A stretch of 64,000 nt of DNA from Chitinophagales bacterium (GCA_031375675.1 JANMIG010000014.1:15934-79933), one strand, 5' to 3'. Numbered from the stretch's first letter, positions 24,790 to 33,623 are shown. Program-made: numbers and translations. The notes: generated from the sequence alone by a model not told the origin.

Positions 24790-25011
24790 ATGGCAAAAAA
24801 AATTCATTTACCAATACTGATTGAGCAGGATGAGGATAAAGTGTATATCGTTTCCTGCCCGCAGTTTAAGGGCTGTCATTCCTATGGTAATACTATTGAA
24901 GAAGCCATGCAGAATATTCATGAAGTTATAGAAATGTGCCTGGAGGAAGAAAAGATTGAAAACGTAAATGATTTTGTTGGATTCAGGGAAATGGAATTTG
25001 AACTGGCTTAA
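24790..25011 (+). CDS. hicB: HicB-like antitoxin (UPF0150 domain only)
   Basis: IEQDEDKVYIVSCPQFKGCHSYGNTIEEAMQNIHEVIEM. No DNA-binding domain (73 aa). Confidence 0.85.
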   Translation: MAKKIHLPILIEQDEDKVYIVSCPQFKGCHSYGNTIEEAMQNIHEVIEMCLEEEKIENVNDFVGFREMEFELA

Positions 25012-25019
25012 TGTGAGTT

Positions 25020-25262
25020 ATGGGAAACAAGCAGGTTGTATTAAGTGGTAAAGACTTGGTAAGGTTATTGGAAAAGATGGGATTTGTTGTTGTGAGGATA
25101 AATGGTTCTCATCATAGAATGCGGCATGAAGATGGAAGGGTAACAACTATACCAGTTCATAAAAATGATGACTTGCCAAAAGGATTGATGCGTAAGATAA
25201 TCAGGGAAGATTTGAAAATGGAATTGGAGGACTTTGAAAATAAATTAAAGGATTTAATCTAA
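25020..25262 (+). CDS. hicA: HicA family toxin (dsRBD-fold mRNA interferase)
   Basis: SGKDLVRLLEKMGF...GSHH...TTIPVH..DLPKG..RKI. Confidence 0.9.
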   Translation: MGNKQVVLSGKDLVRLLEKMGFVVVRINGSHHRMRHEDGRVTTIPVHKNDDLPKGLMRKIIREDLKMELEDFENKLKDLI

Positions 25263-25265
25263 AAC

Positions 25266-25673
25266 ATGGTATTAAACGCATACATACATTTCCCCGGCAA
25301 TGCACAGGAAGCATTGGATTTTTATACCTCAGCATTGGGTGGAGAAGTGGTGTTTATGCAGCGCTACGGCGACAGCCCCATGCCCGCTGATGAGGAGTAC
25401 AAAAACAAAGTGATGCATGCACGCCTTGCATTTGATGGAAACATATTCATGGTATCGGATGTGTTCAAAGGGCAGCCGGTTAATACCAACGGCAATATCC
25501 AACTGAGCGTAAATGTGGAAACGGTTGAGCGGCTCAATGAGGTATTTGAAAAGATGAGTGAAGGCGGTACAGTTTCCATGCCTTTGCAGGATGCGTTCTG
25601 GGGCTCAAGGTTTGGCATGCTGCAGGACAGGTTTGGCGTAAACTGGATGTTTAATTGTGAATTGAAAAAATAA
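25266..25673 (+). CDS. VOC family protein (PhnB-like)
   Basis: YIHFPGNAQEALDFY, KVMHARL and MPLQDAFWGSRFGMLQDRFGVNWM. Confidence 0.9.
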   Translation: MVLNAYIHFPGNAQEALDFYTSALGGEVVFMQRYGDSPMPADEEYKNKVMHARLAFDGNIFMVSDVFKGQPVNTNGNIQLSVNVETVERLNEVFEKMSEGGTVSMPLQDAFWGSRFGMLQDRFGVNWMFNCELKK

Positions 25674-25798: not shown

Positions 25799-27151
25799 AT
25801 GGCTAAAAAATTATTATTAGCAAACGCACATGTACCGGGTATCCGCAGCTACGAAGTGTACCGCCGCGAAGGTGGCTACCGCAGCGTGGAAAAAGCATTA
25901 AAGATGCAACCGGCCGATATTGTGGAAGAAGTGAAGAAAAGCGGGCTGCGTGGCCGTGGCGGTGCAGGCTTTCCTGCGGGTATGAAGTGGAGTTTTATTG
26001 CCAAACCCGAAGGCGTTCCCCGTCACCTGGTATGCAATGCCGACGAAAGTGAGCCGGGTACTTTTAAAGACAGGTACCTGATGGAATTTATTCCGCACCT
26101 GCTGGTAGAAGGAATGATTGTGTCTTCTTTTGCGCTGGGCAGCAATGTGAGTTATATCTACATCCGTGGCGAGTATGCCTGGATAGTGGACATACTGGAA
26201 ACAGCCATAAGTGAAGCAAAGGCCAACGGCTTTTTGGGTAAAAATATACAGGGCAGTGGCTTTGATTGCGAAATATATGTACATCGTGGAGCCGGTGCCT
26301 ATATCTGCGGAGAAGAAACCGCACTGATTGAAAGCCTGGAGGGCAAACGTGGTAATCCACGGATAAAGCCGCCCTTCCCTGCTGTAAAAGGTGTGTGGGA
26401 CAGGCCAACAGTAGTGAACAATGTGGAAACCCTGGCTGCAGTAGTGCCCATCATCAACGATGGTGGCGAGGAATATGCAAAAATCGGCGTTGGCCGCTCC
26501 ACGGGTACCAAACTGATGTCGGCCTGCGGTAATATCAATAAGCCGGGTGTGTATGAAATTGATATGACCATCAGCGTGGAGGAATTTATCTTCAGCGATG
26601 AATATTGTGGCGGTATTGCCAATGGAAAAAGGTTGAAAGCCTGTATCCCGGGTGGTTCTTCTGTGCCCATTTTACCTGCCAACCTGCTGCTGAAAACGGC
26701 TAAGGGTGAGCCAAGGCTGATGAATTACGAGAGCCTTTCGGATGGTGGTTTTGCTACCGGCAGTATGATGGGCAGCGGTGGTTTTGAAGTGCTGGATGAA
26801 GACCAGTGTATTGTGCGCCATACCTATTCGCTGGCCAGGTTTTACCACCACGAAAGCTGCGGCCAATGCAGCCCCTGCCGTGAGGGTACCGGCTGGATGA
26901 AAAAGATACTGCACAATATCGAATACGGCAAAGGCAAAATGAGCGATATTGAATTGTTGTGGGATATACAGCGCAAGATAGAGGGTAATACCATTTGCCC
27001 GCTGGGTGATGCAGCAGCATGGCCCGTAGCAGCGGCCATCCGCCATTTCAGGGATGAGTTTGAATGGCATGTGCTGAACCCGGAGGAATGTTTGACAAGA
27101 AATTACGGGCTGGCGCATTATGCCGACCCATTGGAACTGGCAAAAGCATAA
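25799..27151 (+). CDS. nuoF: NADH-quinone oxidoreductase subunit F
   Basis: SGLRGRGGAGFP, NADESEPGTFKD, GAGAYICGEETAL and CGQCSPCREG. Confidence 0.98.
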   Translation: MAKKLLLANAHVPGIRSYEVYRREGGYRSVEKALKMQPADIVEEVKKSGLRGRGGAGFPAGMKWSFIAKPEGVPRHLVCNADESEPGTFKDRYLMEFIPHLLVEGMIVSSFALGSNVSYIYIRGEYAWIVDILETAISEAKANGFLGKNIQGSGFDCEIYVHRGAGAYICGEETALIESLEGKRGNPRIKPPFPAVKGVWDRPTVVNNVETLAAVVPIINDGGEEYAKIGVGRSTGTKLMSACGNINKPGVYEIDMTISVEEFIFSDEYCGGIANGKRLKACIPGGSSVPILPANLLLKTAKGEPRLMNYESLSDGGFATGSMMGSGGFEVLDEDQCIVRHTYSLARFYHHESCGQCSPCREGTGWMKKILHNIEYGKGKMSDIELLWDIQRKIEGNTICPLGDAAAWPVAAAIRHFRDEFEWHVLNPEECLTRNYGLAHYADPLELAKA

Positions 27152-27183: not shown

Positions 27184-28017
27184 ATGAAAATCATCGGAGC
27201 GGCGTTGTTGCTTTTGTTGGCAGCAACAACGGCAAGGGCGCAGGATATAAAAAAATATGATCCCCTGAAAAAGGGTCAGTTTTATGTATATTGGGGCTGG
27301 AACAGGGAGTGTTACTCAAGGAGTGATATAACACTGAAAGGGGCAGATTATGATATTAAATTGCTGAATGTAAGGGCAAAAGACAAGCCTACTAAGTTAT
27401 CCTATCATAATTACCTCCAGCCCGACAGGGTAACCATACCGCAAACAAATGTGCGGATTGGTTATTTTATCAAGCCAGGGTTGGCAGTGAGTGTTGGGGT
27501 TGATCACATGAAGTATGTTGTAAGTAATAATCAGACTGTAACGGCATTGGGAACGATAAACAGACCAGGGCAGTTTGAAAGAGTATTTGGAGGCCCGGAA
27601 CAGCTCACAACAGATTTTTTGACATTTGAGCATACTGACGGGTTGAATTATGTACATTTTGCCGTGGAGAAATACAAAGAGTTGTACCACTCCAAAACGG
27701 AGAAATGTATTGTAAACTGGTATTATGGAGCAGGAGCAGGTGTGCTGGTGCCAAAAACAAATGTGAAGTTCCTGGATTATGAACGCAACGACAGGTTTCA
27801 TGTATCAGGTTACGGAATAAGTGGGGTTGCGGGTATGCAGGGTGTATTTTTTAAGCATTTTATTATGCGGTTAGAAACAAAGGGTGGTTACATCAATATG
27901 CCGGACATTATCCTGCATAAAAAAGGTGTTGAAGGAAGGGGCAGGCAGCATTTCTTTTTTGGAGAGGCATTTTGGGCGCTGGGAGCAACATACAATTTGA
28001 ATAGGAAAAGAAAGTAA
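27184..28017 (+). CDS. Secreted hypothetical protein, probable outer-membrane beta-barrel
   Basis: Signal peptide ending AQ, amphipathic aromatic strands (FYVYWGWNR, GYFI, WYYGAGAG) and C-terminal LGATYNL. Start moved to MKII. Confidence 0.7.
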   Translation: MKIIGAALLLLLAATTARAQDIKKYDPLKKGQFYVYWGWNRECYSRSDITLKGADYDIKLLNVRAKDKPTKLSYHNYLQPDRVTIPQTNVRIGYFIKPGLAVSVGVDHMKYVVSNNQTVTALGTINRPGQFERVFGGPEQLTTDFLTFEHTDGLNYVHFAVEKYKELYHSKTEKCIVNWYYGAGAGVLVPKTNVKFLDYERNDRFHVSGYGISGVAGMQGVFFKHFIMRLETKGGYINMPDIILHKKGVEGRGRQHFFFGEAFWALGATYNLNRKRK

Positions 28018-28035: not shown

Positions 28036-29094
28036 TTGGAGAATATACACAACATAGAAATTAAAAACTTTAAGTCCATTCGGCACGCATCAATTGATGA
28101 ATGCAAGCGGATTAATGTTTTTGTGGGGCCGCCAAATGTCGGGAAGAGTAACATATTGGAAGCGTTAGGGTTGTTTAGTATGTTAGATCCTTCATTCGGC
28201 ACCTCTTTGAGTCTTCAAAAGCTAACTCGGATAACGAAAGCATCGCAACTTTTTTTTGATGGTTTAATAACCGAACATGGAGTGGTTTCATTAAATCGGA
28301 AACTTACAATGTCCATAGAGGCTATTCCCGGAATAGAAATAGCATTTAATATAGCAAGTGAAGATAATACAGGCATACTTGAAGCCAAAGGCCAAGTCAA
28401 GGCCATTAGTTATAAAAATCATATTGATAGGGCTACCAGTATTTCCTCTCACTCGACCAACTATAAATACAATGAAATAAAACCAATTCGTAAATATGTT
28501 TTCGACAAACAATCATTGCGGTCCAATTTTGAAACTAACTCTAAATATCTTATTACTCCATTTGGCGAAAACATGACAGATATTATTTTCTCAATACCAG
28601 AAGTGAAAAATAAGGTGTTGGGCATATTAAATACTTTTAAACTTAAAACATCTCGTCCTGAGAGCTCAGGCATTTTTTCCATATTGAAAGAGTTAAGTGA
28701 TGGTTCTTTTCTAATTTTGGATTTTGACCTACTTGCAGAAACCTTACAAAGGCTTATTTTTCATCATACAGCAATACTGAGCAATAATGATGCTATATTA
28801 TTGTTTGAAGAGCCTGAATCGCATTTATATGAGCCATATATATTGGATATTACCAATGCAATAAAGTATGACAAAAACAATAATCAATATTTTATCGTTA
28901 CGCATAATCAGTATTTTATAGATGAATTATTGCGTGATGAGGAAAGCAGGAATGAAACCAATATTTATATGGTAGGGCTGGAAAATGGAGAAACTGCTGT
29001 GAGATGGTTAAGTCCAGAAAAAAGTGAAGATGTATTTAATAACGGCTTAAACATATTTTTTAACTACGAAAACCTTTGGAAAGAAAACGCCTGA
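28036..29094 (+). CDS. ABC/SMC-type ATPase of the AAA_15/AAA_21 (OLD/AbiEii-like) group
   Basis: IEIKNFKSI, Walker A GPPNVGKS, Walker B LLFEEPESHL and H-loop VTHN. TTG start; AT-rich. Confidence 0.9.
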   Translation: MENIHNIEIKNFKSIRHASIDECKRINVFVGPPNVGKSNILEALGLFSMLDPSFGTSLSLQKLTRITKASQLFFDGLITEHGVVSLNRKLTMSIEAIPGIEIAFNIASEDNTGILEAKGQVKAISYKNHIDRATSISSHSTNYKYNEIKPIRKYVFDKQSLRSNFETNSKYLITPFGENMTDIIFSIPEVKNKVLGILNTFKLKTSRPESSGIFSILKELSDGSFLILDFDLLAETLQRLIFHHTAILSNNDAILLFEEPESHLYEPYILDITNAIKYDKNNNQYFIVTHNQYFIDELLRDEESRNETNIYMVGLENGETAVRWLSPEKSEDVFNNGLNIFFNYENLWKENA

Positions 29095-29095
29095 T

Positions 29096-29650
29096 ATGCA
29101 GAAAGTAATTGGTGTGGAGTGCTGGGCAGATTATTATTTTTTTGGCCGGTTACTAAACGACAGTAAGATAATAAGGAAGGAAAAAAACAAGAATGAAGTA
29201 CTTAAGAGTATCACAGAGCGGGCAAAAGGAAGTTTTTCAGTTGGTGTGGTGGATCATGACAAAAAAGAGCTTACTGTCTACCTGAAAGAGACCGAAATTG
29301 AAGGAATGGTTACAATTGGAGAGTACATACATGTAAGTAAGTTTGCAGGAAGTATTCAGTTTGTAATTGAACTGAAACCAGTTGAGTTTGAAATATGGAT
29401 AAATGAATTTTTAAAAACTGAAGGTAAATCAGTAGCAGATTTTGGATATGAGAGTTTAAAAGAATTTATTGAGGAGTCGAAATCAATCTATGAGGTGCTT
29501 TTAAGTAAGCCAAGATTTATTAAACTGATGGATTTTATTTTTGAGCATTATAAAAATTCTGATAACCATATCAGGAAAATAAAACTAATTTTAGAATACC
29601 TGTTAAAAAACAGGTATCAAGCAGATATAAACGAATTAATCAATGTCTGA
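29096..29650 (+). CDS. TOPRIM-like partner protein of the ATPase
   Basis: N-terminal strand plus Glu (VIGVECWAD) and a strand plus DxD (VGVVDHD). AT-rich; lies 1 nt after the ATPase stop. Confidence 0.55.
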   Translation: MQKVIGVECWADYYFFGRLLNDSKIIRKEKNKNEVLKSITERAKGSFSVGVVDHDKKELTVYLKETEIEGMVTIGEYIHVSKFAGSIQFVIELKPVEFEIWINEFLKTEGKSVADFGYESLKEFIEESKSIYEVLLSKPRFIKLMDFIFEHYKNSDNHIRKIKLILEYLLKNRYQADINELINV

Positions 29651-30695
29651 ACAGAAACAATTATTTAAGGTAACAATCGACAACATTACCATTGAGGTGG
29701 AACCGGGTACTACGGTACTCAACGCAGCCCGTCAAATTGGTGGCGATGTTACCCCGCCTGCCATGTGCTATTACAGCAAGCTGGCGGGCAGCGGGGGCAA
29801 GTGCCGTACCTGCCTGGTGGAAGTAGCCGCCGGCTCCACTGCCGACCCACGCCCTATGCCCAAGCTGGTGGCAAGCTGCCGCACTACGGTAATGGATGGC
29901 ATGGTTGTAAAAAATTGCACCAGCGACAGGGTGACGGATGCCCGCAATGGCGTAGTGGAGTTTCTCCTTATGAACCATCCGCTGGACTGCCCCATCTGCG
30001 ACCAGGCTGGTGAATGCCACCTGCAGGATCTGGGCTACTCCCACGGTAAGGAAGGTACCCGCTATGAATTTGACAGAAGAACATTCGAAAAAATTGATAT
30101 TGGCGATAAGATACAACTGCACATGACCCGCTGCATCCTTTGCTACAGGTGCACCTACGTGGCCGACCAGCTGACGGACAAAAGGGTGCATGGCATCCTC
30201 AGCCGTGGCGACCATGCAGAGATAAGCACTTACATCGAAAAAGCTGTTGACAACGATTTCAGCGGCAATATGATTGATGTATGCCCGGTAGGTGCCTTAA
30301 CGGATAAAACTTTCCGCTTTAAAAACAGGGTATGGTTTACCAAACCGGTAGATGCACACCGTAACTGCGATACACCCGGCTGCTGCGGTAAAACTACGCT
30401 GTGGCTGCGTGGTGACGAAGTGTACAGGGTTACCAGCCGTAAAGATCAATGGGGCGAAGTGCAGAGTTTCGATGGTAAACCCGGATGGATATGCAATACC
30501 TGCCGCTTTGATAAAAAGAAAACAGGCGACTGGGAGGTTGAAGGACCAACAAAAGTAAACAGGCATTCAGTAATATCTCAGGGGCATTATGAAAATGGAG
30601 TGAAACCAGGCGAAACGATGCAGAAAGTGATGGATGGCAGGGCCCCTAAATTGCTGATGAATATACACAGTGTGAGTGAGGTGAATAAAAAGTAG
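29643..30695 (+). CDS. nuoG: NADH-quinone oxidoreductase subunit G (short, Fe-S domain form)
   Basis: CYYSKL...CRTC, HPLDCPICDQAGEC, CILCYRC and CPVGAL. 350 aa. Confidence 0.95.
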   Translation: MSEQKQLFKVTIDNITIEVEPGTTVLNAARQIGGDVTPPAMCYYSKLAGSGGKCRTCLVEVAAGSTADPRPMPKLVASCRTTVMDGMVVKNCTSDRVTDARNGVVEFLLMNHPLDCPICDQAGECHLQDLGYSHGKEGTRYEFDRRTFEKIDIGDKIQLHMTRCILCYRCTYVADQLTDKRVHGILSRGDHAEISTYIEKAVDNDFSGNMIDVCPVGALTDKTFRFKNRVWFTKPVDAHRNCDTPGCCGKTTLWLRGDEVYRVTSRKDQWGEVQSFDGKPGWICNTCRFDKKKTGDWEVEGPTKVNRHSVISQGHYENGVKPGETMQKVMDGRAPKLLMNIHSVSEVNKK

Positions 30696-33092: not shown

Positions 33093-33623
33093 ATGAAGAA
33101 AATTCTGGTGGTAGCATTTTTCACAGCAGCCTGCATCGGTAAAAGCCAGGCACAGATTGACCTTAAAAAAATATTTGACCTGGATGATATTGTAGGCAAG
33201 GTATTGAATGTGAAAAAAGGTTTTGCACCTAAATTTTCGCTGGGAAATCAGCCCATTACCAAAATTTTTAAGGTGGGCGAAATACTGGGATTGAAAAAGA
33301 ACGACCAGGTGGATAAATATTTCAGGATGTTTAAAACCGGCAGGACCATTTACAAGATTGCCGCTTATGCGGGTACCGCTATATCAGTATATGGTGCTGT
33401 AAAGGGTATTGACAAAGCCGCTGCAAAAAAAGATTACCAGGGTGCCATCATTGGTGGTTTAAGCACCATTGGTACCGGTCTGATAACAAAATTTTTAACC
33501 AAGTCTGCCTCTTACAAAGCTGTTGATATTTTCAATGGAGTGGTAAAAAGGAAGCTTGGCGACATATTGGGTGTGGCCCCGGCCTCATCAACGATAGGTG
33601 TAGGTGTTTATGTAAAATTATAA
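33093..33623 (+). CDS. Secreted Lys-rich hypothetical protein with Gly-rich hydrophobic helices
   Basis: Signal peptide ending [15 protein letters not shown] segment and C-terminal IGVGVYVKL. Sits between nuoJ and nuoK. Confidence 0.75.

Follow-up and report, generated by a model that had tools for sequence, protein, structure and literature searches.

In the window, a 64,000-nucleotide stretch of a Chitinophagales bacterium genome (GCA_031375675.1 JANMIG010000014.1:15934-79933), two adjacent genes lie inside the complex I (nuo) operon, between nuoF and nuoG. The first encodes an ABC ATPase and the second a small partner protein. With a probability of roughly 0.6, we consider this pair to be a sensor ABC ATPase plus a Toprim-like nuclease module, of the OLD/PARIS/AbiL/Mad3-Mad4 kind, which would rely on the nuo transcript for its expression and serve defence or abortive infection. 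The features of the pair and of its flanks, in window positions, are:

28036-29094, + strand: ABC ATPase gene, 352 amino acids, TTG start
28186-28545, + strand: hypervariable middle of the ATPase (residues ~51-170), putatively the module for specificity or sensing
29096-29650, + strand: partner gene, 184 amino acids, Toprim-like/DUF4276-like, putative metal-dependent nuclease effector
29643-29650, + strand: overlap of partner stop and nuoG start, 8 nt, ATGTCTGA
25799-27151, + strand: nuoF, upstream flank of the slot
27184-28017, + strand: "barrel" gene between nuoF and the pair, exported protein of 277 amino acids without a Pfam match, separate from the pair
29643-30695, + strand: nuoG, downstream flank of the slot

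Protein features of the pair

The ATPase is a Rad50/SMC/OLD-class ABC ATPase, the class used by known defence systems. It matched the Pfam families AAA_15 (1.9e-13, 51.2 bits, cut-off 32.1) and AAA_21 (8.2e-11, 42.9 bits, cut-off 27). From the PADLOC models, PDC-M38A (2e-20) and AbiLi (2.9e-18) gave the best matches, both over the full length, and further matches were to AriA (8e-16 and 2e-12), and then to HEC-01A, GajA and Old. The profile of the ATPase family, searched against the PDB, found retron and OLD ATPases, RecF and Rad50. The structure predicted by AlphaFold2 (AF2) had a mean predicted local distance difference test score (pLDDT) of 87. With it, Foldseek recovered the heads of Rad50, SMC, PtuA, retron ATPases, GajA and OLD at ~1e-12 to 1e-11, the values for the OLD/GajA comparison being 1.6e-11 (6p74) and 1.2e-11 (8sm3).

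An earlier reading of this stretch, made from the DNA alone (the sequence-only reading), had named a Walker A motif, a degenerate signature (LAETLQR), a Walker B motif and an H-loop. All four were present, and invariant or nearly so in 33 homologues. Invariant were G31, P33, N34, G36, K37 and S38 of Walker A (GPPNVGKS), T236 and R239 of the signature-like LAETLQR, and E258-E259-P260-E261 of Walker B; H290 of the H-loop was at least 90% conserved. The window ATPase has an intact GxPNxGKS, an EEPE with the catalytic Glu, and the H-loop. The conserved core comprises residues 1-50 and 221-352, with a ratio of nonsynonymous to synonymous substitution rates (dN/dS) of 0.02-0.05.

The partner had no match in Pfam, PADLOC (E<=1), NCBIfam, PHROGs or the PDB sequences, and profile searches of the PDB gave spurious helical matches only. 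A word-index search returned 40 close relatives. By exhaustive profile search, 257 partner clusters (50% identity) were recovered among 1.84 billion representative proteins, nearly all of them 160-190 amino acids long. The Glu (VECWAD) and the DxD (VVDHD) to which the sequence-only reading had pointed were invariant in both the 40 close and 95 distant homologues. In the close ones, E8, D12, D53 and D55 never varied. In the distant ones this held only for E8, D53 and D55, with C9, D12 (at least 90% conserved), G50, E99 and K129 nearly so.

The AF2 model of the partner (pLDDT 91.7) has a helical C-terminal half. In this model, E8 comes right after strand 1 (residues 5-7) and D53xD55 right after strand 3 (residues 48-53), and the succession of secondary-structure elements fits Toprim domains, whose solved examples have three alpha/beta layers and the sheet order 2-1-3-4. 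A Glu after strand 1 and an acidic motif after strand 3 is also the placement in the Toprim families DUF4276 and RloB (PMC12065111). Alignment and predicted structure thus support a conserved Toprim-type Glu and DxD, each where the topology would require it.

For a comparison at the profile level, a DUF4276 alignment was made from 20 genomic loci, each with an ABC ATPase gene upstream. Aligned to it with hhalign, the partner reached Prob 60% and P 8.5e-5, with the Glu, Asp and E-x-W motifs in register, and the reversed-sequence control gave P 0.27. The yardstick, DUF4276 against DUF3226-like proteins, was of similar strength (P 4.5e-5). Two of the 95 distant members matched Pfam DUF4276 and one matched PADLOC AriB (8.6e-4), all weakly. 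We therefore call the partner Toprim-like/DUF4276-like, a putative and not an established member of the Toprim superfamily, the fold itself being only partly supported.

Hypervariable domain and block exchange

In the AF2 model of the ATPase, residues ~51-170 are rich in beta structure and include a disordered loop (124-142). Averaged over pairs, the identity of 10-residue blocks was 0.08-0.5 in the middle of the protein (mostly <0.3), versus ~0.5-0.86 in the core, and residues ~51-170 averaged 0.25-0.30. Many pairs of ATPases were 90-96% identical in the core and 12-30% in the middle, some 96% versus 21%. In two hosts with 99% identical NuoG, DNA identity was 85-97% over nuo, the ATPase ends and the partner, and only 36-58% over a sharply bounded 550-nt block of the ATPase gene. 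For three hosts with near-identical NuoG, the approximately unbiased (AU) test rejected a single clade of their ATPases (p 6e-70).

The dN/dS of the variable block was 0.14-0.38, and its synonymous divergence (dS) was discordant with that of the core. In some pairs the block dS was below the core dS (0.23 vs 0.97), indicating that the block has been exchanged in both directions. The partner had a dN/dS of 0.06-0.20. Purifying selection on both genes places both beyond chance. The middle domain behaves like the specificity module of a conflict system, exchanged as a block.

The core is conserved to about the same degree as NuoG: core and NuoG identity were 0.86 and 0.88 in Flavobacterium, and 0.89 and 0.92 in Weeksellaceae. 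In the ATPase tree, the main nuo clade splits into Chitinophagaceae versus Flavobacterium plus Weeksellaceae, and therefore follows host taxonomy. More divergent nuo-resident lineages and the lineages outside nuo fall outside this clade.

The window and its closest nuo relative (L001) were considered as proof of allele replacement and dropped. Their NuoG dS was already ~1.5, and the AU test was borderline (p 0.043) for a comparison named after the tree had been seen. A Segetibacter metagenome-assembled genome (MAG) had the ATPase-partner cassette twice in tandem at its nuoF-nuoG junction (L053:3976-7178); the first 25 residues of the two were identical and their bodies fell in different clades.

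Organization of the pair within the nuo operon

The sequence-only reading had described an AT-rich two-gene unit, tightly spaced and overlapping nuoG, and the coordinates of the open reading frames and the G + C content agree with it. The ATPase starts 18 nt after the barrel-gene stop (28017), 1 nt separates the ATPase from the partner, and the G + C content is 0.32-0.36 in the pair versus 0.49-0.55 in nuoF and nuoG. The TTG start of the ATPase is supported by its homologues, which begin M-x-x-I-x-N-I-E-I-K-N-F-K-S-I with an ATG at the same residue. The 8-nt overlap with nuoG recurred in most Chitinophagaceae copies, divergent cassette lineages included. In its place, the copies from Flavobacteriales had a gap of 5-42 nt before nuoG.

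That the locus leaves no room for an obvious promoter, another claim of the sequence-only reading, is borne out by the tight packing and by the overlap of the partner with nuoG. Sigma-70-type promoters and terminators inside the pair were not above shuffled expectation, in a scan that does not model Bacteroidota promoters. The window's genome comes from a sediment metagenome, and a look for transcripts spanning the pair met the sequence in DNA metagenome runs only. A search for flanking direct or inverted repeats and target duplications gave short, chance-level matches only, and there was no integrase.

An offset of ~15 points in G + C content was found again in 43 related loci (0.28/0.26 in the pair, 0.42/0.43 in the flanks). 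Host and cassette G + C content moved together, at a constant deficit of ~15 points, which is in keeping with long residence and not with a recent arrival.

Presence of the pair in Bacteroidota genomes

The pair is site-faithful but rare. On the contigs of three close homologues, from a metagenome, a Chitinophagaceae MAG and Flavobacterium soyangense, it lay between nuoF and nuoG in all cases. In the window's family, 15 out of 201 genomes had the partner: eight at the nuoF-nuoG junction, one at nuoG-nuoH, four elsewhere (24-28% identity) and two on short contigs. From the placeable matches, 9/13 were inside the nuo operon. A scan of species-representative genomes gave 34 loci, all of them between nuoF (or nuoF plus barrel gene) and nuoG. 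Their hosts were Segetibacter, Ferruginibacter, other Chitinophagaceae, Flavobacterium, Chryseobacterium, Bergeyella and Frigoriflavimonas. In the window's own genus, 3 of ~17 genomes carried the pair, at nuoF-nuoG. Among 30 Chryseobacterium loci, nuoF was followed by the barrel gene in every one and three were carriers, with the ATPase after the barrel gene. Across the phylum, the partner was detected in 9 of 401 genomes: two in nuo, six at other loci with the ATPase upstream, and one as a degraded fragment. The pair was kept at the same site across three families, but in only about 2-10% of genomes.

The gene order was constant. The ATPase stood directly upstream of the partner in every family locus with readable upstream sequence, and an ATPase was also upstream of the DUF4276 and DUF3226 relatives.

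In congeners without the pair, the nuoF-nuoG slot held a GxxExxY-type gene, a four-helix-bundle gene, the barrel gene alone, or a clean gap of 44-80 nt. The sequence-only reading had supposed that the position might protect the pair from deletion, an idea weakened by these clean empty sites. It had also set its proposal against a conserved housekeeping module. The identical site in three families would suit such a module, and the occupancy of ~2-10%, the pseudogenes and the alternative occupants speak against it. Low occupancy, the hypervariable domain, the pseudogenised copies and the other occupants of the slot indicate that the pair does not belong to the housekeeping equipment of complex I.

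The GxxExxY-type (L118, L122, L126, L130) and four-helix-bundle (L123, L125, L127) slot genes were AT-rich singletons, named by eye, and one four-helix-bundle copy was frameshifted. One nuoF-nuoG partner (G016:C39:15353-15856; L026:9333-9857) was split by a TGA into pieces of 56 and 100 amino acids, with the ATPase open; the same operon had a PDC-M38-like pair at nuoE-nuoF. In locus L009 (G018:C60), the cassette copy was at nuoG-nuoH and not at nuoF-nuoG.

The neighbours of the relatives outside nuo included mnmE, a UvrD-type helicase gene, a formiminotransferase-cyclodeaminase (FTCD) gene and a methylmalonyl-CoA mutase gene. Another such relative adjoined a YhcG nuclease and two XRE regulators. 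In a distant relative (L161:7036-9960), the partner gene overlapped the start of mnmE (trmE), showing that the habit of seamless in-line insertion goes beyond nuo. The window's genome had a second, distant ATPase-partner pair beside the FTCD gene (G000:C8:72833-73288; L165:8834-10340), whose partner has an internal TAA, and a separate ATPase plus DUF4276 pair (G000:C27:66700-67227; L050).

A transfer of the cassette into Chryseobacterium together with nuoF was considered, the idea coming from a NuoF that was 83% identical to that of the window, versus 72% in Flavobacterium. It was ruled out: NuoF was 81-83% identical in 60/61 Chryseobacterium genomes (the remaining one lacked a NuoF match), and of the 30 loci read downstream of nuoF no more than four carry the cassette.

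Relation to known systems

PARIS consists of the AriA ABC ATPase and the AriB DUF4435 Toprim nuclease, and acts in defence (PMC11464382). As in PARIS, the window has two genes, with an ABC ATPase upstream of a small, putatively Toprim-type effector, its ATPase matches AriA models, and the trigger is proposed to be recognised by an insertion in the ATPase head. Unlike PARIS, the window partner had no DUF4435 or AriB match, the ATPase is ~100 amino acids shorter with a beta-rich instead of a helical insert, and the pair sits inside an operon, without P4 or phage context.

AbiL and PDC-M38 share the gene order with the window and gave the best full-length ATPase matches, and PDC-M38-type pairs are also found inside nuo operons, at nuoE-nuoF. 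However, the PDC-M38A-type ATPases of the loci studied have DUF3226/DUF4435-like partners of 206-224 amino acids, and the hidden Markov model of the window partner's family did not match the DUF3226-like ones (hmmsearch none; hhalign Prob 3%). For AbiL, AbiLi matches the window ATPase, but the partner had no AbiLii-type match in PADLOC.

DUF4276 proteins, such as Mad4 of MADS and the NsnC-C domains of Menshen, have been assigned to the Toprim superfamily (PMC12065111). They resemble the window partner in size, in the upstream ABC ATPase, in the Glu after strand 1 and the acidic motif after strand 3, and in an E-x-W/A motif. The window partner nevertheless does not reach the Pfam DUF4276 model, and neither a methylase nor other MADS or Menshen genes accompany the pair. 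Class 1 OLD and GajA have a Rad50-like ABC head structurally similar to the window ATPase, but their Toprim is fused to the ATPase, where the window has a separate protein. As a further difference to Gabija, the window slot has no GajB helicase gene. Overall, the pair cannot be filed under PARIS, AbiL, PDC-M38, OLD or Gabija, since its small protein does not correspond to the partner that defines any of them.

In its mode of evolution, the ATPase resembles HsdS of type I restriction systems, in which a hypervariable target-recognition block of ~100-150 amino acids with conserved flanks is swapped between alleles by recombination. The protein families are unrelated, and the analogy is one of evolutionary mode only. 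Promoter-less toxin-antitoxin (TA) cassettes of nuo operons (MNT/HepT, HicAB, DUF4160/DUF2442) occupy the slots that the pair does, run in its direction, and are as tightly packed and low in G + C content. They are small, classical TA pairs, in contrast to the 1.6-kb ATPase-effector module of the window with its sensor-like variable domain.

Proposed mode of action and alternatives

We infer for this pair a nuclease activity, a complex of ATPase and partner, a trigger, a defence outcome and co-transcription with nuo. The ATPase, with its conserved Rad50-like head and swappable central domain, would serve as the sensor and hold or regulate the partner. Recognition of a trigger, for example a phage protein, would set the partner to work. 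Its acidic cluster of Glu and DxD would coordinate metal for the cleavage of tRNA, mRNA or DNA, and this cleavage would stop the infection or growth. The pair, without an evident promoter of its own, would be read within the nuo transcript and be translationally coupled to nuoG. It represents a sub-lineage resident in the nuoF-nuoG slot of Chitinophagaceae, Flavobacterium and Weeksellaceae, kept patchily, with the putative sensor block exchanged between alleles. In favour of this reading are the ATPase class, the constant gene order, the invariant acidic residues of the partner and their placement, the weak profile link to DUF4276, the constraint on both genes, the block-exchanged middle domain, the patchy occupancy with its pseudogenes, and the MNT/HepT, HicAB, DUF4160/DUF2442 and PDC-M38-type ATPase-Toprim pairs in neighbouring nuo slots.

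Several results weigh against such a defence module. Foldseek searches of the confident partner model against the PDB and BFVD returned no Toprim or other structure at E<0.05, for which reason the Toprim fold is only partly supported, and the profile link between partner and DUF4276 reaches only Prob 60%. From the OLD/PARIS-like pair proposed by the sequence-only reading, the ATPase class was upheld by Pfam, PADLOC and Foldseek, and the Toprim fold of the partner was left with a weak DUF4276 link and no Foldseek match. A defence-island association was looked for in the relatives outside nuo and not found. Their flanks are housekeeping genes, so that guilt by association is missing. The phage and plasmid collections contained no partner homologue. 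The mean dN/dS of the variable domain is below 1. Finally, a core as conserved as NuoG and a host-like tree would also fit a role that is beneficial to the host and non-immune.

If the defence reading is true, a new effector family joins the ABC-ATPase/Toprim defence systems, one for which Pfam, PADLOC and NCBIfam have no model. Alleles with a core >90% and a middle ~20% identical would then be a natural specificity experiment, and promoter-less defence-type modules inside a core respiratory operon would escape discovery pipelines based on islands. The hypothesis is testable, since carriers in culture include Flavobacterium antarcticum DSM 19726, F. soyangense, Chryseobacterium limigenitum and C. 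profundimaris.

The alternative that survives best, although we hold it unlikely, is a pure addiction passenger of the TA type. Here a toxic nuclease partner would be restrained by the ATPase and the module kept because its loss or imbalance harms the cell, with no protection from phages. The classical TA pairs in which nuo junctions are rich, the seamless way in which the whole family is set among housekeeping genes, in many cases with an overlap into the next gene downstream, and the lack of defence-island context and of phage or plasmid copies would all suit a passenger. Yet a hypervariable, block-exchanged domain within a constrained core points to a diversifying outside target, and the ABC-Toprim pairs that have been characterised, PARIS among them, are defence systems (PMC11464382). 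Loss is also tolerated, judging from the clean empty sites and the pseudogenes. Addiction and defence overlap in part, since many TA modules defend.

A more speculative version, with rather slim chances, is that an immune module has turned into a long-term resident of the complex I operon, its activity perhaps wired to the operon and the nuo junctions serving as in-operon niches. The pair might then sense a shut-off of host transcription or translation via the nuo message, or might cut nuo mRNA and in this way shut down respiration on infection. If this were true, the nuo, gyrB-gyrA and pre-mnmE junctions would be an unrecognised class of niches for defence and TA cassettes in Bacteroidota.

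That the pair instead serves complex I as a lineage-specific accessory, housekeeping or regulatory, helping for example in nuo mRNA processing or assembly, is very improbable. Such a role would explain the same position in three families, a core as conserved as NuoG, a cassette tree that mirrors host taxonomy and the presumed translational coupling to nuoG. It is hard to reconcile with carriage by only 15/201 genomes of the family and 3/30 of Chryseobacterium, with congeners whose slot is empty or taken by a GxxExxY-type or a four-helix-bundle gene, and with related pairs at unrelated loci and one copy at nuoG-nuoH. A hypervariable domain is also ill-suited to a fixed partner such as complex I. 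Least probable of all is a homing-type selfish element, whose nuclease would cut the empty nuoF-nuoG junction and which would be copied in by repair from the conserved flanks: the strong site fidelity beside very conserved flanks and a putative nuclease without integrase or repeats would agree with it, but there is no target-site evidence, the slot is also taken by unrelated cassettes without nucleases, relatives occur at other sites, occupancy is low, and the tree follows host families with no spread across them.

Other genes inside nuo operons

The gaps between subunit genes were surveyed in 43 nuo loci. They held 12 MNT-type genes, paired with eight HepT-like and three HEPN partners, as well as DUF4160/DUF2442 pairs, HicAB and UPF0175/DUF3368. 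Uma2, ORF6N, VOC and DUF4440 genes, a methyltransferase and an M48 peptidase were also present. We found no description of cassettes inside nuo operons in the literature.

In four genomes, the nuoE-nuoF junction carried a second kind of cassette, in which a PDC-M38A-like ABC ATPase is paired with a DUF3226/DUF4435 Toprim protein (206-221 amino acids):

L026, 12457-14400, - strand: PDC-M38A-like cassette
L067, ~800-2607: PDC-M38A-like cassette
L084, ~900-2644: PDC-M38A-like cassette
L150, 1477-3295: PDC-M38A-like cassette

Beyond those of the 43-locus survey, a PDC-M38A search gave one nuoE-nuoF pair of that kind, in a different family. It also gave a PDC-M38-type ATPase plus Toprim pair between genes that, by eye, resemble gyrB/gyrA or parE/parC (L147:1477-3295), likewise a tightly packed junction of conserved genes.

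The window itself has further genes between nuo subunits. Between nuoE and nuoF there are hicB (24790-25011), hicA (25020-25262) and a VOC/glyoxalase-fold gene (25266-25673), and VOC homologues occupied the same slot in several related operons. A signal-peptide protein of 176 amino acids is encoded between nuoJ and nuoK (33093-33623), with homologues in the same slot of L001 and L064. Homologues of the barrel gene followed nuoF in 30/30 Chryseobacterium loci, with or without the cassette, and in some Chitinophagaceae; the barrel gene may be a constant component of these nuo operons that has not been described before.

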